Source of the DNA: Nitrospirota bacterium
GTDB lineage: Bacteria > Nitrospirota > JACRHJ01
Assembly (NCBI GenBank): GCA_963845245.1
Contig: CAWJRJ010000001.1
Span: 1 to 19,770 of the forward strand
Reading direction: 5' to 3'
DNA: 19,770 nt
The first letter of the stretch is position 1. Each line of letters starts with the position of its first letter. Below, in pieces: positions 6,600 through 19,770 of this stretch. Below the pieces are notes generated by a model. That model was given only the letters and a program-made list of their open reading frames with translations, had not been told where the DNA came from and did not search any database. The position numbers and the translations under genes are program-made.

Positions 6600-7095
6600 A
6601 TCATAAATTGCTTGCTGAACAGTCAAAGAGCTTTCTTCTGGTGCAGATTTATACGGATAATAATCTTCTGGACGAGCGTTCAATAAAACGTCTTGAAATG
6701 GCGGTATGATACCTTTTAGAAAAATTAGTAACTCGTTCTGATACTAATGATTTGATATGGTTAAAAGTTGAGTCCATTTCGATAAGAGATTCACGGCTTG
6801 CAGATACTATAGTATCTAGATAATTACATTCAACTAACGCTAAATAATGAGGAGATGGTGCGTCGGTCAGGTTTTTCGTCAGCTACCATTCGACCTTTGG
6901 CTGTATAAATTATTTGAGGAGGGAAACGTGAATTTTCGACTGGCTTGTTTAGCATTAGATGATTGATAGTTATTGGTTCAGGAATGTTTTCAGTGGAAGG
7001 AATTAATTCGTTTTCGCGAGATGATATAATTTTATTTATATCCAAAGACTCTTCCTGCACAACAATCTTATTTTTGGGATTGCCCAAGAGAAAAC
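6600..7095 (-). pseudogene. Internal fragment of an unrelated protein (possibly the mid-region of a GHKL/MORC-like ATPase)
   Basis: Frameshifted reading ...PPQIIYTAKGRMV...ALVECNYLDTIVSASRESL...DYYPYKSAPEESSLTVQQAIYD, with no start/RBS or proper end. The family assignment is from pattern memory only. Confidence 0.35.
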
Positions 7096-7197
7096 TACAA
7101 AAGGGTCTATGGCTTGTATTACCATAGAAAGCGTACTTTTTAATGCTGTGGCAATTATATGGCTCGAACCACCTGACCAACTAATAAAAAGCTTCAT
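7096..7197 (-). pseudogene. N-terminus of a bacterial TIR-domain protein (not in ORF track)
   Basis: RBS GAGGAGGA (7202-7209) then ATG at 7197: MKLFISWSGGSSHIIATALKSTLSMVIQAIDPFV, the canonical TIR beta-A FISWSG start. Similarity ends after DPFV and the frame stops at 7036. Confidence 0.8.
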
Positions 7198-7219
7198 ACA
7201 ATCCTCCTCAAAGGTCTAA

Positions 7220-7439
7220 TCATGATAACAAATTATTTATGTCAGAGCTATTAAGTACTTCGTAGCCTATTTGTCTTAAGGCTGCAAGGCGATCATATTG
7301 AAAAATAATACGTTCTTGATGTTCATTAATTGCAACCTGAAATGCCACTTCCAGCGCCTTAAATCAGATATTCGTAAAAAGGTTCTAATAAGTTGTCAAC
7401 ATGAGCGCCGTCATCTCTATTGGCTGCAGCAAGGTCTAC
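7220..7439 (-). pseudogene. C-terminal remnant of a conserved hypothetical protein (ANxDGGAHVD...RQIGYEVL family)
   Basis: Translation LAAANRDDGAHVDNLLEPFYEYLI* then, after a shift, RLAALRQIGYEVLNSSDINNLLS* (stop 7220-7222). No 5' portion is present. Confidence 0.55.
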
Positions 7440-7450
7440 AGCTTTCCTAG

Positions 7451-8352
7451 TTATACAACTGTATTTTCTACTTTAAACTCATCTAAATTGGTTGTAAGTT
7501 TTTCTATCAATGATTTGAAGTGTTATATATTTCTTGCGCTTGTAGAAAGATATTGTACTCCATCAACAATTTCTGCAAATTTGAACGCCTGTTCTGTTTT
7601 TGCAATGTTTGATTCTTGAATAACTTGATCAACTCGTCTTATTATTTGTTTCTTGACATCTTTCGGTAAAACACCCCAAAGAATTGGAATTGTAAATTCA
7701 ATATTTGACCTAAGTTCTGAAGCCGCTGCTGGGTGAACATATGATGTGAAAATCCTATTTGCAAGTTCATTTTTATATGTTTCCGGTAATTCTCCAAGTG
7801 CATTCTCAATAGCAATTTCATTGCGGTCAAAATCAGCGCTACCAAAATTGTCATATAATCATCAATGTCAATAATTTGAGAAGGATAATCTTCATTTAGA
7901 ACATATTTAATGCAATCGTCCATCATAGCTAATACCTTCAGAAATGAAGGTTCGCTACTTTTAGGATGCCCATCGAAAATGTGGCGAGTTTCTTTTGCAT
8001 GCTTTAATATCTTGCTAGCTTCCCAGCCGATTACACCAATTTTATATGCACCTTCAATTAGCTGATCATCATTTACATAATTTTGAAAATCTTCATAGAT
8101 TTTAATTTCTCTGCTGAGGGTGACCTCTTTATTGAAGAGAGCCAAACTTCTATGAATTATCTTATTTCTCAAATCATCAACAACAGCATTCCAGAATGAC
8201 CCAATTGCACTTCGATAACCACCCACAGGCAAAACTTTAATAGCCTCAAGAATATATGTATTTTCTCTAATATCTTCTCTTACAGATGAGAGAACCATAG
8301 CAAATAGAGGGGCAACGTCTTTCTTATCTATAGATATTAAGTTTTTTCCCAT
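7451..8352 (-). pseudogene. AT-rich hypothetical protein with HEPN-like RxxxxxH motif, frameshifted and truncated
   Basis: ATG 8352 with RBS AGGAG. LEAIKVLPVGGYRSAIGSFWNAV and ETRHIFDGHP. A shift at ~7843 continues as GSADFDRNEIAIENALGELPETYKNELANRIF...EIVDGVQYLSTSAR, followed by in-frame stops at ~7523 and ~7451. Confidence 0.6.
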
Positions 8353-8422
8353 AGTGAATGTATCTCCTAAACAGGAACATTTTATCGATTATCCATGCTT
8401 GTTGAATTACATTATGAAGTCG

Positions 8423-10028: not shown

Positions 10029-10057
10029 TTGACAATAACTGCTCGCGGAAATATAAT
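10029..10057 (+). promoter_or_regulatory. Perfect-consensus sigma70 promoter for the fabF cluster
   Basis: TTGACA (10029-10034) - 17 bp - TATAAT (10052-10057), 38 bp upstream of ATG 10096. Confidence 0.85.
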
Positions 10058-10095
10058 CAAAACCTTATCGTAATTAAGAAAAGAAGGCGGTATTG

Positions 10096-11319
10096 ATGTA
10101 TTCCAGAAGGGTTGCTGTGGTTGGCCTGGGTGTGGTTAGCGCGCTCGGGATGACAAAAGACGATTTTTGGGACGGGTTGACCCATGGCCGCTGCGGGATC
10201 GGCCCGGTCGACCTGTTCAATACCTCCGCATACCGTACACATATCGGCGCCCAGATAAGAGGCCTTGACCCGTCCGCCCACTTCGGTAAAAAAGAGCTTA
10301 GACGGATGTCCCGCTGCGACAATATAGGTATAATCGCGGCGAGGGAGGCCGTGAAAGACAGCGGACTTGACCTTCCGCACGCTGACAAGACCCGCATAGG
10401 AGTCCTCCTCGGCGGCGGCGCTGGCGGCATGCTCTCCGGCGAGAAGTACCGAAGAGACCTCCAGGAGCAAAAGACAATGCCGCGCCCGTCGCTCCTGATA
10501 CCATTCTCGCCAAGCGTCACCACAGATTATATTGCATTGGAGTTCGGACTGGAAGGCCCGCGCGCAACTGTCGTCACTGCCTGCTCGTCATCCTCAACAT
10601 CCGTCGGCTATGCCGCCGACTGGATAAAGAACGGCGAGGCGGATGTTGTAATTACTGGCGGAAGCGACGCCATGTGTGAGCTTACTTACAGCGGGTTCAA
10701 TTCTCTGCGTGCGGTGGACGACGGCCCATGCAGGCCGTTCGACGCGACCAGAAAAGGCCTGTCGCTTGGCGAGGGTGCGGGCATACTGGTGCTTGAGGAT
10801 ATGGACCATGCGCTCGCTCGCGGTGCGAGGATATACGCCGAGGTTGCAGGATACGGCATAGCCGGGGACGCATATCATATGACCGCGCCCGAGGCAAGCG
10901 GGGCTGGGGCGGCTAGGGCGATACAGGCCGCGCTCGACGACGCAGGTGCATCTCCAGATGAAGTCGATTACATTAACGCGCATGGCACCGCAACAAAGTT
11001 TAACGACGTCGCCGAGACGGCGGCGATAAAGTTGGTCTTCGGAGAGAAGGCGTATGATATCCCGGTAAGTTCTATAAAGTCCATGATCGGCCACTGCCTC
11101 GGCTCAGCCGGTGGCCTTGAGGCCGTCTCGACCGTTCTAACTGTTTTCCATGATATCATTCCCCCCACAATAAATTACGAAAGCAAAGACCCGCACTGCG
11201 ACCTTGACTACACCCCGAACGAGGCAAGGAACAAGAAGGTCGGTTTTGCCATATCAAACTCACTTGCATTTGGAGGCAACAACACTACAGTGGCATTCAG
11301 GAAGTGGGCTAAACCATGA
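10096..11319 (+). CDS. fabF: Beta-ketoacyl-ACP synthase (FabF-like KS, catalytically intact)
   Basis: RRVAVVGLG start, TACSSS (catalytic Cys), INAHGTAT (His), SSIKSMIGHCLG (Lys/His), SNSLAFGGNN. Intact frame. Confidence 0.93.
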   Translation: MYSRRVAVVGLGVVSALGMTKDDFWDGLTHGRCGIGPVDLFNTSAYRTHIGAQIRGLDPSAHFGKKELRRMSRCDNIGIIAAREAVKDSGLDLPHADKTRIGVLLGGGAGGMLSGEKYRRDLQEQKTMPRPSLLIPFSPSVTTDYIALEFGLEGPRATVVTACSSSSTSVGYAADWIKNGEADVVITGGSDAMCELTYSGFNSLRAVDDGPCRPFDATRKGLSLGEGAGILVLEDMDHALARGARIYAEVAGYGIAGDAYHMTAPEASGAGAARAIQAALDDAGASPDEVDYINAHGTATKFNDVAETAAIKLVFGEKAYDIPVSSIKSMIGHCLGSAGGLEAVSTVLTVFHDIIPPTINYESKDPHCDLDYTPNEARNKKVGFAISNSLAFGGNNTTVAFRKWAKP

Positions 11320-12545
11320 CCCGGAGAGTAGTTATAACCGGACTTGGCACCGTGAACGCGCTGGGGCTTGACGTCGCCTCCTACTGGGCAAGCGTCAAGG
11401 CTAACCGCTCCGCAATAAGGCCGATAGAGGGTTTCGATACAGCGCCGTTCCGCTCCAAACTCGGGGCGGAGGTCAAGGGCTTTGAGCCGTCGAAGCTTCG
11501 TCGACCCGATGAAGCTTCGCAGGATGGACAGGCTGTCCCAGATGGTGCTTGTCTCGTCAATCGAGGCCATGAAGGACGCGGGCATCGAGGTCGGGGTAAT
11601 GCCGCCTGAGCGCATAGGGGTGGTAATAGGCAACGGTTATGGCGGCACGTCCTGTACGGAGGAGTTCTTCGAGGGGTTGCTGCTTCGCGGGCCAGCAGGT
11701 GTAAACCCGATGCTGTTCCCCACTACCGTGCCGAACTCTGCCGCAAGCCTTGACATCTATAGAGCTTAAAATAAAGGGGCCAAACTCCACATTCTGCCAG
11801 AAAGATATCTCCGCGGAGGAGGCGATAATATACGCAGCTGGCCTTATACGCAAGGGCGCTGCGGACGTGGTAATCGCAGGGGGCGGTGAGGAATTGAACG
11901 ACGTCATCTACCATGCATTCTCTTCGCTTGATATCCTCTCAAAAACAGAAAACGGTTTAGCTGAGGGTTGCAGGCCATTTGACAAGACGCGCAACGGCAG
12001 GGTGCTTGGCGAAGGAGCTGCGGTACTGATACTCGAATCGCTCGAATCCGCCAAAAATCGCGGGGCAAGGATATACGCGGAGCTTGCCGGGAGCGCACTC
12101 ACAGGCGGTCTGTCCGGTATATCTGGATACAACAAGGATACCGACACTATGGTCAGAGCTATGGGGGCGGCGCTGGAACGTTCCGGTGTCAGCAGCGTAG
12201 ACTACATCTCTGCGGCCGCAAACTCTACAAAAGACCTGGACGCATTCGAGGCCGAAGCAATAACGAAATTATTCGGCGAAAAGTCCGCGTCCATACCTGT
12301 AAGCTCCATCCGCCCGATGACCGGCGACTTCGAGGGCATGGGAGGACTGAGGCTTGTTGACGTCCGTGCTTGCCATGAGAGATGGATACATACCGCCTAC
12401 CCTGAACCTGGCCGAGCCGGACACGAGTATGGGGCTTGACCATGTGACCGGAAGCGGCAGGGAAGTACAGGTTAATACGATATTGCATAACGGTTTCGGC
12501 AATGGCGGTACAAACGCCTGCATAGTCCTGAAGAATCCGTCATGA
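11316..12545 (+). CDS. Catalytically inactive FabF paralogue (chain-length-factor-like KS subunit), three frameshifts
   Basis: ATGA overlap with the fabF stop. Extra bases at ~11493, ~11750 and ~12354 join four ORF pieces into a full KS fold (MTRRVVITGLG...CRPFDKTRNGRVLGEGAA...GFGNGGTNACIVL). Catalytic positions read CQKDIS, ISAAANST and SSIRPMTGD. Confidence 0.85.
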
Positions 12546-13969
12546 AGGATTCCTATGACGTCGTTGTTATCGGCGCAGGTATCGGAGGTCTTTCGGCCGG
12601 GGCGCTTCTTGCCAGGAAAGGTCTTTCCGTGGCAGTATTCGAGTCTCAGCCAGTTGCAGGCGGATACTGCACCAGCTTCCGAAGGAAGGGGTTCACATTC
12701 GACTCATGCCTGGATGCGATAAGTGGCTGTGGCGATAAAGGGTGGCTCAAAAGGATACTTAAAAAGATCGGTATAGAGGACGAGGTCGAGTTCGTGAGGC
12801 TCGACCCGCTTCGGGTTGACAACTTCGGCGGAGATGTCATCTCGATACCGGGCGAAATAGGGGCCTATAAGGAGTTGTTGCTGAGTATGGCGTCCGGTGA
12901 GAGAGACGGCATAGAAGGCATGTTCAAGACAATGACGTCGATATACAGGACGGCGATGGTCACCGCGCCCGAGACCCTTTATACCGACCCAAGGCTTGAC
13001 GGCAGGGGCGACGACCTCGCGAAGTACAGGCGGCTGACGTATAAAGACCTGCTCGATGATTTTGTAAAAGACCAGCGCGTGCGCGCCGTGCTATGTGACC
13101 GTTCCGCGTTTATGGGACTGCCGGCTTCAAAAGTCTCAGCCGTTGCGATGGTGACGATGCTGATGACCTTCGCGGAGGGCGGCGGCTACAGGATAAAAGG
13201 CGGGGCGCAGAGGCTTGCCAATGCGCTTGCCAAAGGGCTTCAAAACGCAGGCGGCGAGTTGTTTCTGAGGAAGCCAGTTACCGAGATTTTCAGCGAGGGC
13301 GGCAGGGCGGCAGGTGTGATGGTCGGCGGTCAGATGGTCAAGGCGAAGGCAGTCATATCCGGCATCGACGCCACGAAGACCTGTAAATTGGCCGGACTTG
13401 GTATTGACGGCAACCTCAGACCATCGACGAGTTTCTTCATGGTTTATCTTGGGCTTGGCAAGGACATTGATATGCCGGACAGCATGGGTTACTATCCGGG
13501 TTATGACATCGAGGGGACGTTCGCCGATACTGCGAAGGACATAGCATCATCAAAAGCCTCGGTTGAGATAATCAATTATTCCAGGATAAGTCCCGGCATG
13601 GCTCCTGTGGGATGCTCCACTGTCATGCTTATGTCCAAGGCGGCTTATGCATACAACAAGCCATGGCATTCCTGCAAGAGAGAAGAAGCTGACCGTCTTA
13701 TTGCGCTGGCCGGGAAGGCACTTCCAGAGTTGGCGGACAATATTTCATATGCGGAGGCGGCAACGCCGCTCACACTTGAAAGATATACGGCAAACGGTTC
13801 CGGCGCAGCGTTCGGATGGGAGCAGGGCTCCTATAACAGGCGTAGTACTGCAGCCACGGCTCTTCCCGGATTGTATATGGCTGGTCACTGGACATATCCT
13901 GGAGGCGGTATAGAGTCGGTTGCAGCGTCTGGTCTGGTGGCGGCGGAAAAGGCCGCATTGGCGATATAA
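12542..13969 (+). CDS. Phytoene desaturase/CrtI-family FAD-dependent oxidoreductase
   Basis: Rossmann GAGIGGLSAG, GGYCTSFRRKGFTFD, ATPLTLERYT, GAAFGWE, GLYMAGHWTYPGGGI. ATGA overlap with the upstream gene. Confidence 0.88.
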   Translation: MKDSYDVVVIGAGIGGLSAGALLARKGLSVAVFESQPVAGGYCTSFRRKGFTFDSCLDAISGCGDKGWLKRILKKIGIEDEVEFVRLDPLRVDNFGGDVISIPGEIGAYKELLLSMASGERDGIEGMFKTMTSIYRTAMVTAPETLYTDPRLDGRGDDLAKYRRLTYKDLLDDFVKDQRVRAVLCDRSAFMGLPASKVSAVAMVTMLMTFAEGGGYRIKGGAQRLANALAKGLQNAGGELFLRKPVTEIFSEGGRAAGVMVGGQMVKAKAVISGIDATKTCKLAGLGIDGNLRPSTSFFMVYLGLGKDIDMPDSMGYYPGYDIEGTFADTAKDIASSKASVEIINYSRISPGMAPVGCSTVMLMSKAAYAYNKPWHSCKREEADRLIALAGKALPELADNISYAEAATPLTLERYTANGSGAAFGWEQGSYNRRSTAATALPGLYMAGHWTYPGGGIESVAASGLVAAEKAALAI

Positions 13970-13989
13970 TAAACATCGGAGCATATCAC

Positions 13990-14415
13990 TTGATATTCGA
14001 CGAGACTGAGGTACGGGTAAGGTTCTACGAGGCCGACATGTGGCATATGGGCTGGCACGGCCATTACGTCGCATGGTTCGAGGTAGGCCGCATCGAGCTT
14101 GCGCGCAGGTTCGGCCTGATGCCTGCGGATTTCGAGGCGGCAGGCTGCGTGGCGCCCGTGATTAACCTCAACATAGACTACAAGGCGATGGCAAAGTTCG
14201 ACGACGTACTTACCATCCGCACAGCCGTGCGCGTGCCGACGAAGGCCGCGCTGACGTTTGAGTATGAGGCTGTAAGGAAGTCCGACGGCAGGCTCCTGGC
14301 CCGCGGCGAGACGACACAGGTACTGTTAAATAATAACGGCGATATGATGTACCTCATACCTGTCGCCTTGAAGGACAAGGTAGGGGATATGGTCATGTTC
14401 TGTAATCCGGAGTAA
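13990..14415 (+). CDS. Hotdog-fold acyl-CoA/ACP thioesterase (4HBT/YbgC family)
   Basis: VRVRFYEADMWHMGWHGHYVAWFEVGR, APVINLNIDYK, AKFDD, ARGETTQV. TTG start with GGAG RBS. Confidence 0.85.
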   Translation: MIFDETEVRVRFYEADMWHMGWHGHYVAWFEVGRIELARRFGLMPADFEAAGCVAPVINLNIDYKAMAKFDDVLTIRTAVRVPTKAALTFEYEAVRKSDGRLLARGETTQVLLNNNGDMMYLIPVALKDKVGDMVMFCNPE

Positions 14416-14421
14416 TACGTA

Positions 14422-16060
14422 ATGTCTAAACCAAGAGTACTGATGGCGGACCCGCCGCATCTCATCTGGGACATGATGAAGGGCTGGGTGCCAAACCCCG
14501 CCCTACTTGCGCTAAGCGCATACATAGAAAACGACTTCGACACCAGGGTTATGGACTGCACCGTCATGCCAAACCCGTGGGCGGACTTTGAGCGCGAGGT
14601 GGCAGAGTTCAAGCCGCAGGTGGTCGGGCTTTGCAACATCGGCACGAGCTACCTTTACGATGCCCTTAACGCGGCGAAGCTCGTCAAGATGGTCAGCCCC
14701 GAGACGAAGGTGATCATCGGCGGGACGCACCCGTCCCTTGCACCGGACGAGGTACTTGACCTTGGGCAAGGATGTTGACTTCGCTGCGTAGGCGAGGGCG
14801 AGGTTACGCTCAAGGAGTTCGTCCAGGCGGTGGACGGCGGCGAGAAGGATTTCTCCGGCATCAAGGGCCTTGCATTCCGGGACGGCTCACAGATAATCCG
14901 CACCGAGCCGCGTCCGTTCATAGAAGACCTCAACTCGCTCCCGATGCCCGCATACCACCGCGTCCCGATGAATAGCCCGCTTTACTCCATCGACGTCATA
15001 GGCCCCAAGTGCGTCGTGCCGTCGTTCTCGCGCGGCTGCGGCTACAAATGCACCTTCTGCACCGAGACGCTCCGCTGGGGCAACCGCTGGCGCGGCAAGT
15101 CGGCATGGAAGATAGTCGAGGAGATAGAGTACCTCCAGAAGAATTTCGGGATAAAGACGTTCCTCGTCGGCGACAACGACTTCCTGTGGGACCGCAAGCG
15201 AAACTACGAATACTGCGACCTGATGGAGAAGAAGGGCTTGAAGGCCAACCTCTGGATACAGGCGCGGCCAGACCATATCATGCGCGACCAGGAGCTTATC
15301 CCGAGGCTCCGCAAGGTCGGCCTGTTCGAGGTGCTGCTTGGCATCGAGTCGTTCGAGCAGTCGATGATGGACACGTGGGACAAGCGCGAGGAGCTTGAGA
15401 CGATACTCAAATGCATAAAGCTCCTTAAGAAGAACGACGTGATGGTGCTGACCAGCCTGATGTTCGGCCACTGGAACGACAGCAAGGAGACCATAGACAA
15501 ACTGATAAAGTCGGCGAAGAAACATTCCGACTTCCTTGGGTCTTGCGATTGCGACGCCGTTCCCCGGCACGCAGTTCTTCAAGGAGTCCAAGGAGCTTGG
15601 GCGCATAGAGGAGACGGACTACCGCAAGTTCGACTGGGGCACGGCCGTGATGTCCACCAAGCACCTCACCCGCAAGGAGGTTGGGCGTCTGCACGGCATT
15701 GCATACGGCAAGTTCTATGTGCGTCCCAAGACGCTTATCAAGGCGGTATTCTCTACCAACCCGTACATCAGGACGCTGTACAAATCCTTTGCGACGTACC
15801 TCTTCAGGAAACTGTTGAAACGGCCCTGGCGTCAGCCGGGTTTCATGCTGTTCGAGAACTACCTCTTAAAGAGGGAAGGCAAGCTTACGCTTGTGAAGGC
15901 GTCCGGCCAGCGTGAGAAGTGCGACGTCTGCGGAGAGCGCGTCGGGCTATATTCCGGTTACAGGTGCACCAACCCGGAGTGCGGGACGCTCTTCTGCATG
16001 GACTGCAACGCAGGAGGATTTGTAAAGCAGTGCCCGCAATGCGGGAGCACGGCCGGATAA
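14422..16060 (+). CDS. Cobalamin-dependent radical SAM enzyme 1 with C-terminal 8-Cys zinc-finger-like tail
   Basis: B12-binding domain (KPQVVG, IIGGTHPS, GEGEVT), SRGCGYKCTFC, LGIESF, ATPFPGT. Compensating indels at ~14765/14783 and a +1 at ~15540. Confidence 0.9.
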
Positions 16061-16076
16061 ACTTTAGAAGTCTGGA

Positions 16077-16217
16077 GCGGAGGGATAATGTTATTGCAAG
16101 AGACATCAAGTGATTCGGGCAATCAGGGAGTAAGCCTCGTAAAGGCGCGCTTTGGCGCTCGGCTACTCCCTGATTGCCCATCACTATGATGGCTCTTAAA
16201 TAACATTATCCCTACGC
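16077..16217. repeat. 141-nt long imperfect hairpin (MITE-like or structured RNA element)
   Basis: AGGGATAATGTTATT (16081-16095) pairs with 16199-16213, and GGGCAATCAGGGAGTA (16117-16132) pairs perfectly with 16164-16179. Intermediate pairs are AAGAG/CTCTT, CATCA/TGATG and AGTGAT/ATCACT. Confidence 0.8.
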
Positions 16218-16250
16218 ACAACTTAAATATACGGTTTTCAGGAGTTTGTA

Positions 16251-17732
16251 ATGCGAGTATTACTGGTTGATCCGCCACACGAGATATTCAAGTTCTTTCA
16301 GGGGCCGTATGCCCTCTCCGTCGTTGACGGCGCTTTCGGCATACATCGAGAACGACTTCGAGATGCGGGTGATAGACTGCACGGTGCAGGACAAGCCCTG
16401 GGAAGCGCTCGAAGCCGAGATACGCAACTTCAAGCCGCAGGTCGTCGGCATCTCCGCCATCTCCACCTCGTACATATACGACGCGATGAACGCGGCATAC
16501 CTCGTCAAGCAGATCGACCCGTCCATCGTGACCGTCGGCGGCGGCGTGCACATGTCGCTTATGCCGGAGGAGATCGCTTCGAGAAATGCCCGAGCATGGA
16601 CTATATCGTCATGGGCGAGGGCGAGCTCACGCTGATGGAGTTCCTGAAGGCCATCGAGTCGGGCCGCACGGACCTTGAGAATATTCCCGGCCTGGCCTTC
16701 CGCAAGGACGGCGGCTACCATATCGGCGCACGGCGCGAGCTTATCGCAGACCTCGACACGCTCCCGCTTCCCGGCTACCACAACTTCCCGATGCACAAGT
16801 ACATGATGCCCTCGCTTGGCATGGCGACGCACAACTCGATAGTCCTGACCACCGCGCGCGGCTGCGAGGGCGTATGCAACTACTGCTCGGAGGCGAAGCT
16901 CTGGCGCAGCACATGGAGGCCGAAGTCCGCGCCTCGCGTGCTTGAGGAGATGGAGCTTCTTTACAAGAAGTACGACAAGTACAGCTTCATGTTCGGGGAC
17001 GACTCGTTCAACTGGGACAGGGGCAGGGTGGAGGACTTTATCATCGAGCTTGAGAAGAAGAAGCTCCCCGTGCACTTCTGGTTCCAGACCCGCGCCGAGC
17101 ACCTCCTTCGTGACGCCGACCTCCTGCCGCGCTTAAAGAAGCTCGGGCTGTACATGATATCGATGGGCGTGGAGACGCCGTCCGAGGCGGCGCTCAAGAA
17201 CTACCGCAAGAAGCAGACTGCGGGCGTCGCGCTCAAGGCGATGCAGACCATCAAGAAGAACGGCCTGCTGCTCATCACGAACATCATGTTCGGCGACATA
17301 GACGACACCGAGGAGACGCTCCAGCAGACCATCGACTTCGCGAAGCCGTACTCCGACCACTTCGCCATATGCCTGACCACGCCGCTGCCCGGCACGGAAT
17401 ACTACAAGCGCGCGAAGGAGCAGGGCCGCATAAAGGTGTGGGACTACTCCAAGTACGACATGCTGAACCCGGTCATGGAGACGCGCACGCTCTCCATAGA
17501 AAAACTCGCCGAGATACACCCGGCGGCGATACAGAAGTTCTACTCGCGCTTCCGCGTCTTCTGGGACGCGTTCTTCTCGACGAACCCGTACCTGCGGAAG
17601 AACAACCGCTTCTTCGTGAACGTGGCCTGGGAGGTCATAACGCACAAGCCGTGGGTGCAGAAGAACTACGTGCCGTTTGAGAAGTACATGGAAGAGAAGA
17701 CCGGGAAGGCGTTTGAGCGCATACATATGTAG
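16251..17732 (+). CDS. Cobalamin-dependent radical SAM enzyme 2 (paralogue of enzyme 1)
   Basis: RBS AGGAG. Compensating indels at ~16302 and ~16577 give VLLVDPPH...LSAYIENDF...KPQVVG...GGGVH...GEGELT, then TARGCEGVCNYC, MGVET and TPLPGT. Confidence 0.9.
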   Translation: MRVLLVDPPHEIFKFFQGPYALSVVDGAFGIHRERLRDAGDRLHGAGQALGSARSRDTQLQAAGRRHLRHLHLVHIRRDERGIPRQADRPVHRDRRRRRAHVAYAGGDRFEKCPSMDYIVMGEGELTLMEFLKAIESGRTDLENIPGLAFRKDGGYHIGARRELIADLDTLPLPGYHNFPMHKYMMPSLGMATHNSIVLTTARGCEGVCNYCSEAKLWRSTWRPKSAPRVLEEMELLYKKYDKYSFMFGDDSFNWDRGRVEDFIIELEKKKLPVHFWFQTRAEHLLRDADLLPRLKKLGLYMISMGVETPSEAALKNYRKKQTAGVALKAMQTIKKNGLLLITNIMFGDIDDTEETLQQTIDFAKPYSDHFAICLTTPLPGTEYYKRAKEQGRIKVWDYSKYDMLNPVMETRTLSIEKLAEIHPAAIQKFYSRFRVFWDAFFSTNPYLRKNNRFFVNVAWEVITHKPWVQKNYVPFEKYMEEKTGKAFERIHM

Positions 17733-17755
17733 GGACCGACCTATGTGTCGGCCCT
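17729..17755 (+). repeat. GTAG-family REP 1
   Basis: GTAG-GGACCGAC-CTATGT-GTCGGCCC-T (one stem mismatch). Its TAG is the stop codon of radical SAM 2. Confidence 0.88.
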
Positions 17756-17817
17756 AAATTTAATAGACGGAGCGCAGATTTTAGAATACTCTGGTATTGC
17801 ACTTAATAGGAGGCATA

Positions 17818-18570
17818 ATGGAGTGGAAAACAGTATCGGGAGGCTCTGGCTCTATTATTGAAATTAATAATATTGAAGACGGTGATGGAAAAAGAATAGC
17901 CCATAAACGTTTTTTGACGGATGTATCAAAAAGATTCGCAAAAGAATGTAAACTATTTCATAATGAAGTTGGAGATTTGCCTTATATTTATAGTGAACGA
18001 CAAGTCCACTCCGCACTTTTTCCAGCAATACAAAAAGTTTCTGATGTCACTTTTTTAGAACAGCCAATTGACAGAAAGAGGAAAATTGGTAAGAAGAAAG
18101 ACGGTCATGGATGGGTTGATTATTGGGTCGAATACGGACAAAATGTTTTCTTAATAGAATTAAAACATTCATGGTTAAGTTATAAGAATATAAAACTTAA
18201 TGCGTATGACAATAAAGGAACATGGAAAGAATTACTTACTCAATTAAAATCTATTAAAAATTCTGATGCTAGATTCTTGGCAGATAAAAGCTGTAACGTA
18301 ATAAAAATGGGACTAATGATTATGCCGTTGTATTCCAACTCTAAAAATGAAGAAAGTGAACATTTAAATAAAGGAGAAGCTTTAGAAATGCTTAATAGAG
18401 TTCAGCATGAGTTGGATGCTGATTGGAGTTGTTTTTGGCATGCTCCCAAAACAATTTTAACAGAATCGTTTCCCTATTATGAAGATGGTAAAAAAGCTTA
18501 CTCAAAATATCCTGGAGTCATTTTAGCCTCGTGCGTAAATAGCATAGGTAAGGGAACTTACGAGATTTAA
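17818..18570 (+). CDS. AT-rich hypothetical protein with PD-(D/E)xK nuclease-like motif
   Basis: RBS AGGAGG then ATG 17818. YSERQVHS (helix Glu), LEQP, GWVDYW...FLIELKH (D...ExK). Composition is sharply more AT-rich than the flanks. Confidence 0.65.
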   Translation: MEWKTVSGGSGSIIEINNIEDGDGKRIAHKRFLTDVSKRFAKECKLFHNEVGDLPYIYSERQVHSALFPAIQKVSDVTFLEQPIDRKRKIGKKKDGHGWVDYWVEYGQNVFLIELKHSWLSYKNIKLNAYDNKGTWKELLTQLKSIKNSDARFLADKSCNVIKMGLMIMPLYSNSKNEESEHLNKGEALEMLNRVQHELDADWSCFWHAPKTILTESFPYYEDGKKAYSKYPGVILASCVNSIGKGTYEI

Positions 18571-18574
18571 ATAG

Positions 18575-18601
18575 AGGGCCGACACACAGGTCGGCCCCTA
18601 C
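18575..18601 (-). repeat. GTAG-family REP 2
   Basis: Minus strand GTAG-GGGCCGAC-CTGTGT-GTCGGCCC-T, inverted relative to REP 1. Confidence 0.9.
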
Positions 18602-18610
18602 AAAAGGTGG

Positions 18611-19129
18611 ATGATTATAAGAGGTCCAAGAAAAAGGCTGCGATTTGAGGGCTATAATTACTCACAGGAAGGTCTGTATTTTGTGACCATCTGCGTCCAT
18701 AACCGTGAATTGCTTTTAGAGGTGCCGCACGTTTCCGTTATGATTGAAAAATATTGGACTGATGTCCCGAATAAATATTGTCACATAATATTAGACGATT
18801 TTGTCATAATGCCGAATCATTTTCACGGCATTATACAAATTGTAGGGGCCGACCTATGTGTCGGCCCTGAATTAAATACAAATGCTCCTGTAAATGAAAC
18901 ACTGCCGCGCATAATGAAGTGGTTCAAATCACAGACCACGAATGCCTATCTTAGAGGTATAAGGCATGATGGCTGGCAGCCATTTAACGGCAGCTTATGG
19001 CAGCGCGGCTATCATGACAGGGTCATTCGTGATGAAGATGAATTGAATACTATAAGGTTGTACATTCAGGAAAATCCGAATAAATGGCAGGAAGATATCG
19101 AGAACCCATTAAGAAGGGCCGACACATAG
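18611..19129 (+). CDS. rayT: REP-associated tyrosine transposase (RAYT, Y1 HUH, IS200-like)
   Basis: LRFEGYNYSQEGLYFVTIC, HUH motif MPNHFHGII, WQRGYHDRVIR, and catalytic Tyr in YIQENP. Flanked by and containing REPs. Confidence 0.92.
   Translation: MIIRGPRKRLRFEGYNYSQEGLYFVTICVHNRELLLEVPHVSVMIEKYWTDVPNKYCHIILDDFVIMPNHFHGIIQIVGADLCVGPELNTNAPVNETLPRIMKWFKSQTTNAYLRGIRHDGWQPFNGSLWQRGYHDRVIRDEDELNTIRLYIQENPNKWQEDIENPLRRADT
18842..18868 (+). repeat. GTAG-family REP 3, in frame inside rayT
   Basis: GTAG-GGGCCGAC-CTATGT-GTCGGCCC-T, translated as VGADLCVGP just after the HUH motif. Confidence 0.9.
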
Positions 19130-19141
19130 GTCGGCCCCTAC
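19115..19141 (-). repeat. GTAG-family REP 4
   Basis: Exact reverse complement of REP 3. Contains the rayT stop codon TAG (19127-19129). Confidence 0.9.
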
Positions 19142-19156
19142 AATAGGAAATATAAC

Positions 19157-19770
19157 ATGAAGGTTTTAATTATTTCCCCGGAAGGCCGCCACACCGCTGT
19201 CGGCAAAAAGTTTAAGTTCCCGTTCCCGACGGCTGGTGCGCCGATGGTCGCGGCGCTGTCGCCTGCCGATTGTGATGTGCGGATAATCGACGAGATCGTC
19301 GAGGACATAAACTTCGACGAGAAGGCGGACATCGTCGCCATATCGTCCATGACCCCGATGGCATCGCGTGCGTACGAGATTGCTGCTGAGTTTCGGAAGC
19401 GCGGGGTGGCCGTGATAATGGGCGGGATACACCCGTCGGCATGCCCGGACGAGGCGGCGGAGCATTGCGACTCGGTAATCATAGGCGAGGCGGAAGACCT
19501 CTGGCCGCAGGCAATTGAGGACTTCAAGAACGGGCGGCTCCAGAAGATTTACAAGAAGGATTATCTCCACCCGCTGACCGCACTGCCGCAGCCGCGCTGG
19601 GACCTTCTGCGTACCGACAAGTACTTCCCCATCACGATTGTGGAGACATCACGCGGATGCCCGCACAACTGCGACTTCTGCGCCGTGACGACATTCTATG
19701 GCGGCAAGTACCGCACGCGCCCGGTGGAGGAGGTGGAGAACGAGATAAGCCCTGCTCGGGACGCGACTCT
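19157..19770 (+). CDS. Cobalamin-dependent radical SAM enzyme 3 (partial, runs off window; not in ORF track)
   Basis: ATG 19157 is open to the end: MKVLIISP...ADIVAISSMT...RAYEIA...MGGIHPS...IGEAEDLW...PRWDLL...ETSRGCPHNCDFC...RTRPVEEV. Confidence 0.92.
   Translation, partial: MKVLIISPEGRHTAVGKKFKFPFPTAGAPMVAALSPADCDVRIIDEIVEDINFDEKADIVAISSMTPMASRAYEIAAEFRKRGVAVIMGGIHPSACPDEAAEHCDSVIIGEAEDLWPQAIEDFKNGRLQKIYKKDYLHPLTALPQPRWDLLRTDKYFPITIVETSRGCPHNCDFCAVTTFYGGKYRTRPVEEVENEISPARDAT

Follow-up and report, generated by a model that had tools for sequence, protein, structure and literature searches.

Introduction

The closest described relatives of the gene cluster reported here come from anammox bacteria, in which Cluster I, a candidate ladderane operon, is reported to contain amxACP, amxFabZ, amxFabF2, amxFabFmut, a phytoene-desaturase homologue and a B12-binding radical S-adenosylmethionine (SAM) gene (PMC4790861). 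The amxFabFmut protein has been described with valine at the active-site cysteine position; the two ketosynthases (KS) are described as a heterodimer resembling a KS with its chain-length factor (CLF), which decarboxylates malonyl-acyl carrier protein (ACP) and seems to favour C6-C8 over C16 in crosslinking, and the inactive partner has been called the first CLF in fatty-acid synthesis (bioRxiv 10.64898/2026.05.19.726425). The cluster studied here was found in a stretch of 19,770 bases, hereafter the window, which is the entire contig C1 (CAWJRJ010000001.1) of the genome of an anaerobic Nitrospirota bacterium not in culture (GCA_963845245.1; 2.88 Mb, 37 contigs, completeness 90 %, contamination 5.2 %). 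The window encodes a predicted active FabF-type KS (KS1), a catalytically inactive KS (KS2), a CrtI-like flavoenzyme (Des1), a hotdog thioesterase (TE) and B12-binding radical SAM enzymes (rSAM A, rSAM B and the start of rSAM C).

The enzymes that form the ladderane rings are given as unknown in a 2026 review (PMC13459092), and a 2026 preprint likewise states that none has been linked to ring formation (bioRxiv 10.64898/2026.05.19.726425). Few approaches to ladderane biosynthesis are available, comparative anatomy being one of them. Clusters of FabF paralogues with CrtI-like and radical SAM genes outside the anammox bacteria are already known in outline (PMC2649909; PMC9902471). They include 'ladderane-type' clusters reported from genome mining in the non-anammox anaerobe Desulfotalea psychrophila (PMC2649909) and antiSMASH 'ladderane' calls in nine phyla or candidate groups, Nitrospirota not being listed in the accessible text of that source (PMC9902471). 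The nine-gene architecture described below is likewise not listed in the accessible text of either paper, a distinction drawn between descriptions and not between sequences, and neither this architecture nor the wider family of inactive KS to which KS2 belongs was described in the literature searched.

With moderate confidence, we read the locus as the front of a nine-gene operon for a specialised acyl-chain pathway that would be plugged into housekeeping type II fatty-acid synthesis. Judged from the sequences, the operon probably makes a heavily modified fatty acid, and a branched or carbocyclic fatty acid is a more likely product than a ladderane.

Organization and conservation of the cluster

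Nine genes, KS1-KS2-Des1-TE-rSAM A-rSAM B-rSAM C-rSAM D-Des2, were found in identical order in all four family-f1 loci examined in full (genomes G006, G007, G004 and G001), with 35 of the 36 orthologues intact; the exception, Des2 of G006, is split over two frames. The gene coordinates fit the same order in all seven f1 relatives holding the genes, out of 11 other f1 genomes, and the four genomes without them are 65-93 % complete. Because the window is a whole contig, the cluster is truncated at its end; the missing part in this genome, with full-length rSAM C (C20:196297-194957), rSAM D and Des2, was located on the minus strand at the end of contig C20 (196297-192025), which overlaps the end of the window.

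The cluster boundaries are clear. The 5' neighbours vary, being UbiD, UbiA, UbiX and Era homologues here and in G006, and a sigma factor with a phosphoribosyltransferase in G007, and Des2 is immediately followed, here as in G006 and G007, by a convergent operon of a short-chain dehydrogenase/reductase (SDR), BioF, BioW and BioB. The full consensus promoter found ahead of KS1 (Table 1) also lies 38-53 nt upstream of KS1 in G006 and G007, and the -35 and -10 elements are conserved in the promoter alignment in G004. The 12/12 match is present in three genera, despite the different upstream genes in G007.

As judged by sequence searches, the full cluster is found only in one Nitrospirota family. 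Among 401 genomes of the phylum, this one included, rSAM A orthologues of at least 80 % identity are confined to f1. In a search of 5.8 billion proteins, rSAM A matched 11 clusters at ≥79 % identity before a drop to 50 %, and among the matches listed for KS2 there were 32 clusters at ≥60 % before a drop to 45 %. The named members above those drops (one for rSAM A, three for KS2) are all labelled Nitrospirota, the organism labels of the homologue clusters resting on these four named homologues.

Partial arrangements occur in two other families. Family f2 (G021; loci L036 and L037) has TE-rSAM B-rSAM C at one contig end and, on a second contig, rSAM C-rSAM D-Des2, accompanied by genes for a third CrtI-like and a U32-peptidase-like protein. 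The f6 locus combines a Des1-like gene with those for a PP-binding protein, a SPASM rSAM, an ATP-grasp enzyme and an rSAM C orthologue. From the f2 and f6 arrangements it follows that the tailoring part and the KS part are separable modules. The f2 module also contains a 23S-IVS protein and is situated downstream of an extracytoplasmic function (ECF) sigma/anti-sigma pair, and its U32-peptidase-like protein bears DUF2621; U32 proteins include oxygen-independent hydroxylases.

The ketosynthase pair

KS1 retains Cys164, His262 and His297. In KS2 the cysteine is replaced by Asp and the two histidines by Gly and by Ser or Ala, and GD replaces a conserved GH, in all eight Nitrospirota sequences aligned. 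A wider group of inactive KS, at 38-45 % identity, has Glu at the cysteine position in six of its seven members, one member of the group being labelled Deltaproteobacteria, and the change of GH to G[D/E] is common to all of the inactive KS. The NCBIfam fabF cut-off (493.75) was reached by neither protein (KS1, 466.9 bits; KS2 of G006, 335.9 bits); KS1 passes the broader PRK07314 subfamily model (457 bits, cut-off 387).

In a PDB search, the best hits were FabF structures (378 bits for KS1, 254 for KS2), with the actinorhodin KS (288 and 175 bits) and Iga11 (269 and 164 bits) scoring lower, and no CLF chain was present among the best 60 of 82 matches of KS1 or the best 60 of 74 matches of KS2. 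The recently solved PDB entry 9s5h, a pair of '3-oxoacyl-ACP synthase' chains, was also matched, KS1 by chain B (362 bits) and KS2 by chain C (226 bits) better than by chain B (210 bits); the entry may be the anammox heterodimer and was not used as evidence.

In a tree of 33 KS rows (LG+C20+F+G4, one very long row left out), a single clade with support of 99/98 unites the Glu-type group with the inactive KS of Nitrospirota and with the inactive anammox partner (KSb). KS1 and the active anammox partner (KSa) are unresolved beside this clade, and both fall outside the canonical FabF clade (99/95) at a modest 88/90. A common origin of the inactive KS partners is the best-supported reading of these sequences, though not a settled one.

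Radical SAM, desaturase-like and thioesterase enzymes

The rSAM A of the window is 80-82 % identical to the intact 542-aa protein of G006, and its rSAM C is 84 % identical to residues 1-202 of G006 rSAM C. A quick tree of 37 rows (LG+G4) resolved three superclades: the TIGR04072 type, the A/B type, which is BchE-like, and the C/D type. The first includes a 440-bit enzyme of the large anammox cluster and a 277-bit enzyme of a second cluster in this genome (both described below), and the third unites rSAM C, rSAM D, metagenomic relatives and the anammox Cluster I rSAM (SH-aLRT 99). None of the four G006 enzymes reached the cut-off of 360 for TIGR04072 (rSAM_ladder_B12), the scores being 86 bits for rSAM A, 104 for B, 58 for C and 44 for D; an anammox enzyme at L126 scored 440 bits. 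The model was dropped as a membership test for Cluster I, as the Cluster I rSAM itself fails it (87 bits), and the TIGR04072 matches in G533 and G433 (L129-L131) are not Cluster I. Of the curated models, those for BchE, HpnJ and HpnR gave the highest scores with rSAM A and rSAM B, every one far below its cut-off; for BchE (TIGR02026, cut-off 481.35) the values were 252.2 (A), 216.2 (B), 102.5 (C) and 44.5 (D) bits. The C-terminus of rSAM A (15920-16057 of the window) is Cys-rich, with several CxxC-type pairs conserved in G006, and resembles a zinc ribbon; no Pfam family was matched there.

Further paralogues of the C type are encoded on contigs C17, C18 and C22. In the 30 loci annotated out of 80 metagenome loci with relatives of rSAM C, the lipid- or acyl-linked neighbours were PagL (2), LpxL-like/LolA-like/acyltransferase (1), enoyl-CoA hydratase/KAS III/3-hydroxyacyl-CoA dehydrogenase (2), AMP-binding enzymes (2) and LuxE (1), a context too mixed for a substrate to be assigned.

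Des1 scored 142 bits against crtI_fam (cut-off 238) and just 48-66 bits against solved CrtI-family structures. A contig search with Des1 alone returned only remote flavin adenine dinucleotide (FAD) proteins, and a protein-cluster search only generic phytoene-desaturase clusters. The thioesterase scores below the cut-offs of the NCBIfam YbgC/FadM subfamily (63.8 bits, cut-off 68.7) and of MenI (75 bits, cut-off 225), and is 67 % identical to its G006 orthologue and 58 % identical to that of f2. An acidic residue near its N-terminus, seen by eye, is presumably that of the YbgC-type motif.

Comparison with anammox and other clusters

The Planctomycetota were entered via locus L028, a by-catch of the Des1 contig search, after which 401 genomes of that phylum were searched. 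Three genomes (G533, G433 and G636) are termed probable anammox on the basis of two copies each of a protein of ~810-826 aa with a hydrazine-synthase alpha domain; this domain (HZS_alpha) is not specific to anammox bacteria, being matched in 49 of the 401 Planctomycetota and in one control genome, and it was used for cross-tabulation. Des1 is 31-38 % identical (231-270 bits) to two proteins in each of the three. A Des1-like match at E≤1e-50 was present in 21 of the 401 genomes, and HZS_alpha was matched in 15 of these 21 versus 34 of the 380 others, a comparison that is descriptive only, the genomes being related.

At loci L132 (G533) and L133 (G433) the order is ACP-FabZ-KS-KS(Cys to Val)-CrtI-like-B12 rSAM, which matches the published order and annotation of kuste3603-3608 (PMC4790861). 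The Nitrospirota cluster resembles this Cluster I in having an active FabF-like KS, an inactive KS and a CrtI-like enzyme, the gene for which directly follows the KS pair (Des1 overlaps the stop of KS2), and a B12 rSAM of the same superclade downstream. Identities are 40-42 % for KS1 and KSa, 33-35 % for KS2 and KSb, 31-33 % for Des1 and the desaturase homologue and 32-33 % for rSAM C and the Cluster I rSAM; the NCBIfam score profiles of the two KS pairs are nearly identical, the inactive KS share a clade and the change of GH to G[D/E], and the best match of the Cluster I desaturase-like protein in this genome is Des1. However, the Nitrospirota cluster is without a dedicated ACP or FabZ and adds the thioesterase, the two BchE-like rSAMs, a fourth rSAM and the second CrtI-like enzyme, and the residues of its inactive KS are Asp/Gly/Ser where those of anammox bacteria are Val/Met/Asn. 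In addition, rSAM C is neither adjacent to Des1 nor a one-to-one orthologue of the Cluster I rSAM, which has closer relatives in this genome on C18 and C17; orthology is at family level only.

A large anammox cluster (kuste3335-3352 type; L136, L126 and L134) is also similar in part. It contains several KS genes, one of them inactive, a Des1-like enzyme that is the best anammox match of Des1 (36 %, 269 bits) and, on its 5' side, a full-length rSAM C homologue (L136:4214-5557 in G533; L135:5612-7054 in G433), to which rSAM C is nearer (44 %) than to the Cluster I rSAM. It differs in being much larger, with ACPs, other genes and TIGR04072-type rSAMs (440 bits, against 44-104 bits for the type in the window).

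The initial annotation of the window had likened the locus to the candidate ladderane operon, and the four component families are indeed common to both, in the same relative order at L132 and L133. It had held that a lack of synteny in related genomes, or a KS pair grouping with characterised aryl-polyene or housekeeping FabF and rSAMs grouping with unrelated known pathways, would speak against the likeness. Synteny is conserved; in the KS tree the inactive KS groups with its anammox counterparts, a separate anammox origin of the latter not being rejected (p-AU 0.059), and KS1 stands outside the canonical FabF clade with modest support only. The similarity of the radical SAM enzymes holds for the C/D type, which is that of Cluster I, and not for the BchE-like A/B type.

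More distant systems share single traits. The KS/CLF pairs of type II polyketide synthases (PKS), such as those for actinorhodin and ishigamide (Iga11/12), also consist of an active KS followed by an inactive paralogue with coupled translation, but KS1 and KS2 score best against FabF structures and KS2 has Asp at the cysteine position, where classical CLFs have Gln. BchE, HpnJ and HpnR share the B12-binding and radical SAM architecture of rSAM A and B, BchE being the best curated model; however, the BchE scores of these two are about half of the cut-off, the nearest solved structures are remote (≤57 bits), and the cluster context has no tetrapyrrole or hopanoid link. The aryl-polyene (Ape) cluster differs in gene content, the only level compared (Pfam), its own ACPs, ketoreductase, dehydratases and export genes being absent here.

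The same genome has a second cluster with a KS and an inactive KS (C20:124000-138000, locus L018), the active KS of which has the actinorhodin KS as its best solved match (402 bits). It also encodes an ACP, a PF04199 cyclase, two TIGR04076 proteins, a flavin mononucleotide (FMN) reductase, an amidohydrolase, two CrtI-like enzymes, a DUF4410 protein, a TIGR04072-like B12 rSAM (277 bits, cut-off 360), an LpxL-like acyltransferase and a SPASM rSAM, a gene content that suggests a lipid cluster of the type II PKS-like kind.

Features of the window

The features of the locus are shown in Table 1. Every real gene from 10029 to the contig end is on the plus strand, and KS1/KS2 (11316-11319) and KS2/Des1 (12542-12545) overlap at their start and stop codons by four bases each. 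Fifteen translated pieces were run against Pfam, of which 12 were assigned to families; no family was obtained for the pieces at 12354-12545, 15536-16060 and 17797-18570.

Table 1 Features of the Nitrospirota locus in the window
Feature	Position	Strand	Evidence
Sigma-70 type promoter, TTGACA-17 nt-TATAAT	10029..10057	+	Consensus match 12/12
KS1, active FabF-type beta-ketoacyl-ACP synthase (predicted)	10093..11319	+	Pfam PF00109, PF02801; Cys164-His262-His297 intact
KS2, catalytically inactive KS, CLF-like partner	11316..12545	+	Pfam on four frame pieces
Des1, CrtI/amine-oxidase family FAD enzyme	12542..13969	+	Pfam PF01593 (Amino_oxidase), PF13450 (NAD_binding_8)
TE, hotdog (4HBT/YbgC-type) thioesterase	13990..14415	+	Pfam PF13279 (4HBT_2), PF03061
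rSAM A, B12-binding radical SAM, BchE-like	14422..16060	+	Pfam B12-binding and Radical_SAM on pieces
rSAM B, B12-binding radical SAM, paralogue of rSAM A (43-44 %)	16251..17732	+	Pfam B12-binding and Radical_SAM
Low-GC mobile insertion, REP/RAYT	17728..19147	+	GC 0.37, repeats, Y1_Tnp
rSAM C, first 204 aa (N-terminal), truncated by contig end	19157..19770	+	Pfam B12-binding and Radical_SAM

Several frame breaks were located by tblastn against intact orthologues: about three in KS2 (near 11492-11512, 11735-11751 and 12354-12358, against the 408-aa G006 protein), about three in rSAM A, which is locally garbled near 14770-14790 and frameshifted near 15539, and two in rSAM B (near 16297 and 16585). 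Breakage also occurs outside the cluster, the homologues of UbiD and UbiX being spread over three and two frames, respectively. The window overlaps other contigs at C1:18148-19747 (the end of C20) and C1:814-1769 (C6), with an identity of just 88-90 %. A search of sequencing runs gave a best DNA share of 0.05-0.08 of the sampled words, and no RNA run was listed.

The initial annotation, made from the window alone, had described a co-directional, partly translationally coupled run of an active and an inactive FabF gene, a phytoene-desaturase-family gene, a thioesterase gene and B12 rSAMs behind a perfect promoter. The Pfam assignments and the start-stop overlaps bear this out, and the promoter is a full match that recurs upstream of KS1 in relatives. 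The observation was correct, with the amendment that KS2, rSAM A and rSAM B are frame-broken. The three rSAM genes then recognized are present in the window; the full cluster has four, plus the second CrtI-like gene. Their run is co-directional, as described, but is split between rSAM B and rSAM C by 1.4 kb of low-GC DNA.

This insertion carries four hairpins like repetitive extragenic palindromes (REP) at 17728-17765, 18575-18607, 18841-18878 and 19115-19147, an orphan open reading frame (ORF) of 257 aa (17797-18570) and a gene for a tyrosine transposase like the REP-associated ones (RAYT; 18611-19129; REP_Tyr_transpos 70.2 bits, cut-off 80, plus Y1_Tnp). The genome has 29 copies of the hairpin core and a further RAYT copy on C30. 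The insertion is absent from G006 and G001, in which the stop codon of rSAM B overlaps the start codon of rSAM C. The junction bears a different insertion in each of three genera, with unrelated orphan ORFs without a Pfam family in G007 (291 aa, L014:12763-13635) and G004 (365 aa, L016:8786-9880). The REP/RAYT insertion is not part of the pathway.

Elsewhere in the window, positions 1-186 are repeated at 313-498 with 97.8 % identity, and a large gene on the minus strand (1049-2891), divided between two frames, has a translation that on inspection by eye resembles multicopper oxidases; it overlaps the stretch common to C1 and C6. At 6800-8400, between the UbiD homologue and a gene resembling that for uracil-DNA glycosylase, lies an island of low GC content (0.34-0.43) that contains orphan ORFs, one of them at 7642-8352 (minus strand); no similar gap is present at this place in G006.

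Predicted pathway and alternative explanations

The initial annotation had proposed as the product a polyunsaturated acyl chain that would be radical-cyclised and/or multiply C-methylated and then set free by the thioesterase. In the pathway proposed here, KS1 and KS2 would, like their anammox counterparts, form a heterodimer that decarboxylates malonyl-ACP and extends a chain whose length is set and probably short to medium. The chain would be carried on an ACP encoded elsewhere, with the cell's own FabG, FabZ and FabI being used, and Des1 and Des2 would introduce or shift double bonds. The four cobalamin-dependent rSAMs, two BchE-like and two of the anammox type, would then modify unactivated carbons by C-methylation, C-C ring closure or both, and the hotdog thioesterase would hydrolyse the thioester so that the product exits as a free acid.

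Several points weigh against this reading. Neither the cluster nor its complete relatives contain an ACP, FabZ, FabG or acyltransferase, so that the absence of ACP, FabZ and FabG, first remarked for the window, held when the comparison was extended, and a tblastn search of the genome with the L132 ACP (E≤1e-4) yielded no amxACP-like gene. The proposed link to acyl-ACP therefore depends on the KS pair and on analogy. Family f2 carries TE-rSAM B-C-D-Des2 without an adjacent KS pair, and the tailoring module can therefore work without KS1 and KS2. Among 80 metagenome loci with rSAM C relatives, a KS occurred in three and Des or TE in none, so the rSAM C family is not bound to a single pathway. 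The desaturase tree (15 rows, single outgroup) is an unresolved polytomy, and KS1 is about equally similar to housekeeping FabF and to the anammox KS. Approximately unbiased (AU) tests, for which both groups were named after inspection of the tree and in which long branches are involved, did not reject an origin of the anammox KSb from KSa within the anammox bacteria (p-AU 0.059, log-likelihood difference 9.7); their rejection of a local origin of KS2 from KS1 (p-AU 4e-56) counts in favour of the reading. Finally, seven of the 13 genes compared with G006 are frame-broken (UbiX, UbiD, KS2, rSAM A, rSAM B, rSAM D and Des2), and the function of the cluster in this very genome is accordingly a prediction.

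As to the carrier, the f6 arrangement, in which a Des1-like gene neighbours an rSAM C orthologue and the gene for a PP-binding protein, is in favour of the link. The genome has four PP-binding matches on other contigs, on C30 (beside housekeeping FabF), C20 (two) and C14, and FabZ homologues at C20:117 kb and on C21.

The other explanations are taken in order of falling probability. It is unlikely, if conceivable, that the KS, the inactive KS, the CrtI-like enzyme and the C/D-type rSAM which anammox bacteria and this Nitrospirota family have in common, together form an ancient, transferable module that makes C-C bonds, as small rings, while a short acyl chain is growing; these Nitrospirota would then produce a new class of fatty acids, carbocyclic and/or poly-methylated. 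No function can be transferred from the anammox cluster by homology, because the ring-forming enzymes of ladderanes are unknown (PMC13459092).

A decaying, non-functional pseudogene array, interrupted by a mobile element, would agree with the frame breaks, at least eight in number, of KS2, rSAM A and rSAM B, with those in rSAM D and Des2 on C20 and with the REP/RAYT insertion at a junction where stop and start overlap in relatives. However, the breaks look like assembly errors because the neighbouring, unrelated housekeeping genes for UbiD and UbiX are broken as well, and the short out-of-frame stretch of rSAM A, after which the frame is restored, is typical of consensus errors. The low identity of the contig-end overlaps, the intact KS1, Des1 and TE, the perfect promoter and the near-complete set of intact orthologues in the four relatives are also at odds with decay. 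From the sequences, a noisy or strain-mixed assembly appears to be the cause of the breaks, and loss of function is decidedly unlikely.

If the tailoring enzymes acted instead on an isoprenoid or a quinone, Des1 and Des2 would (de)saturate it and the B12 rSAMs would methylate it in the manner of the hopanoid and bacteriochlorophyll methylases. The membership of both flavoenzymes in the CrtI/CrtISO superfamily, the best-scoring models of rSAM A and B, the UbiD, UbiA and UbiX homologues just upstream on the opposite strand here and in G006, and the f2 tailoring module without a KS pair can all be read in this way. The scores of those models are, however, far under their cut-offs, KS1 and KS2 are translationally coupled to Des1, the upstream neighbours are different in G007, the f6 relative pairs a Des1-like enzyme with a carrier protein, and the anammox homologues of Des1 were unable to replace CrtI in a lycopene assay (PMC4790861). 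Such a substrate is improbable.

A supply of free pimelate or another dicarboxylate for biotin, in which a C7 unit would be cut or built, freed by the thioesterase and re-activated by BioW, is suggested by the bio operon directly after Des2 and by the free acid that a thioesterase would give. BioW requires free pimelate, and to our knowledge the anaerobic source of pimelate is poorly known. We nevertheless regard this role as very improbable: the bio genes are on the opposite strand, their adjacency is limited to one family and possibly just inherited, none were present on the f2 contigs L036 and L037 (both short and cut by contig ends), the anammox homologue loci that were read are not linked to biotin genes, and four B12 rSAMs and two flavoenzymes exceed such a task.

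That the cluster makes true ladderane lipids, with concatenated cyclobutane rings, is extremely improbable in spite of the core shared with Cluster I in the same order (KS, inactive KS, desaturase-like enzyme and C/D-type B12 rSAM), as the dedicated ACP and FabZ are missing, no HZS_alpha match was found in this 90 %-complete genome, the homologous clusters of a non-anammox bacterium are reported to have yielded no ladderanes (PMC2649909), the role of the anammox cluster itself is described as unproven (PMC13459092), and the added TE, BchE-like rSAMs and Des2 point to other chemistry.

Conclusions

The nine-gene operon read here as a specialised acyl-chain pathway probably places the inactive FabF partner of anammox bacteria in a wider family with members among Nitrospirota and other anaerobes, and shows that a KS pair, a CrtI-like enzyme and a C/D-type B12 rSAM co-occur outside the anammox bacteria. 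To judge by its gene content, the set could work without a dedicated ACP or FabZ and could be extended with more radical SAM enzymes and a thioesterase. If the module does form rings, the compact, ACP-less operon would separate a minimal ladderane-type ring-forming core from the anammox-specific additions. The intact orthologues of the relatives offer compact constructs for heterologous expression, and a new branched or cyclic fatty acid, if that is the product, would be a potential sediment biomarker for anaerobic Nitrospirota.

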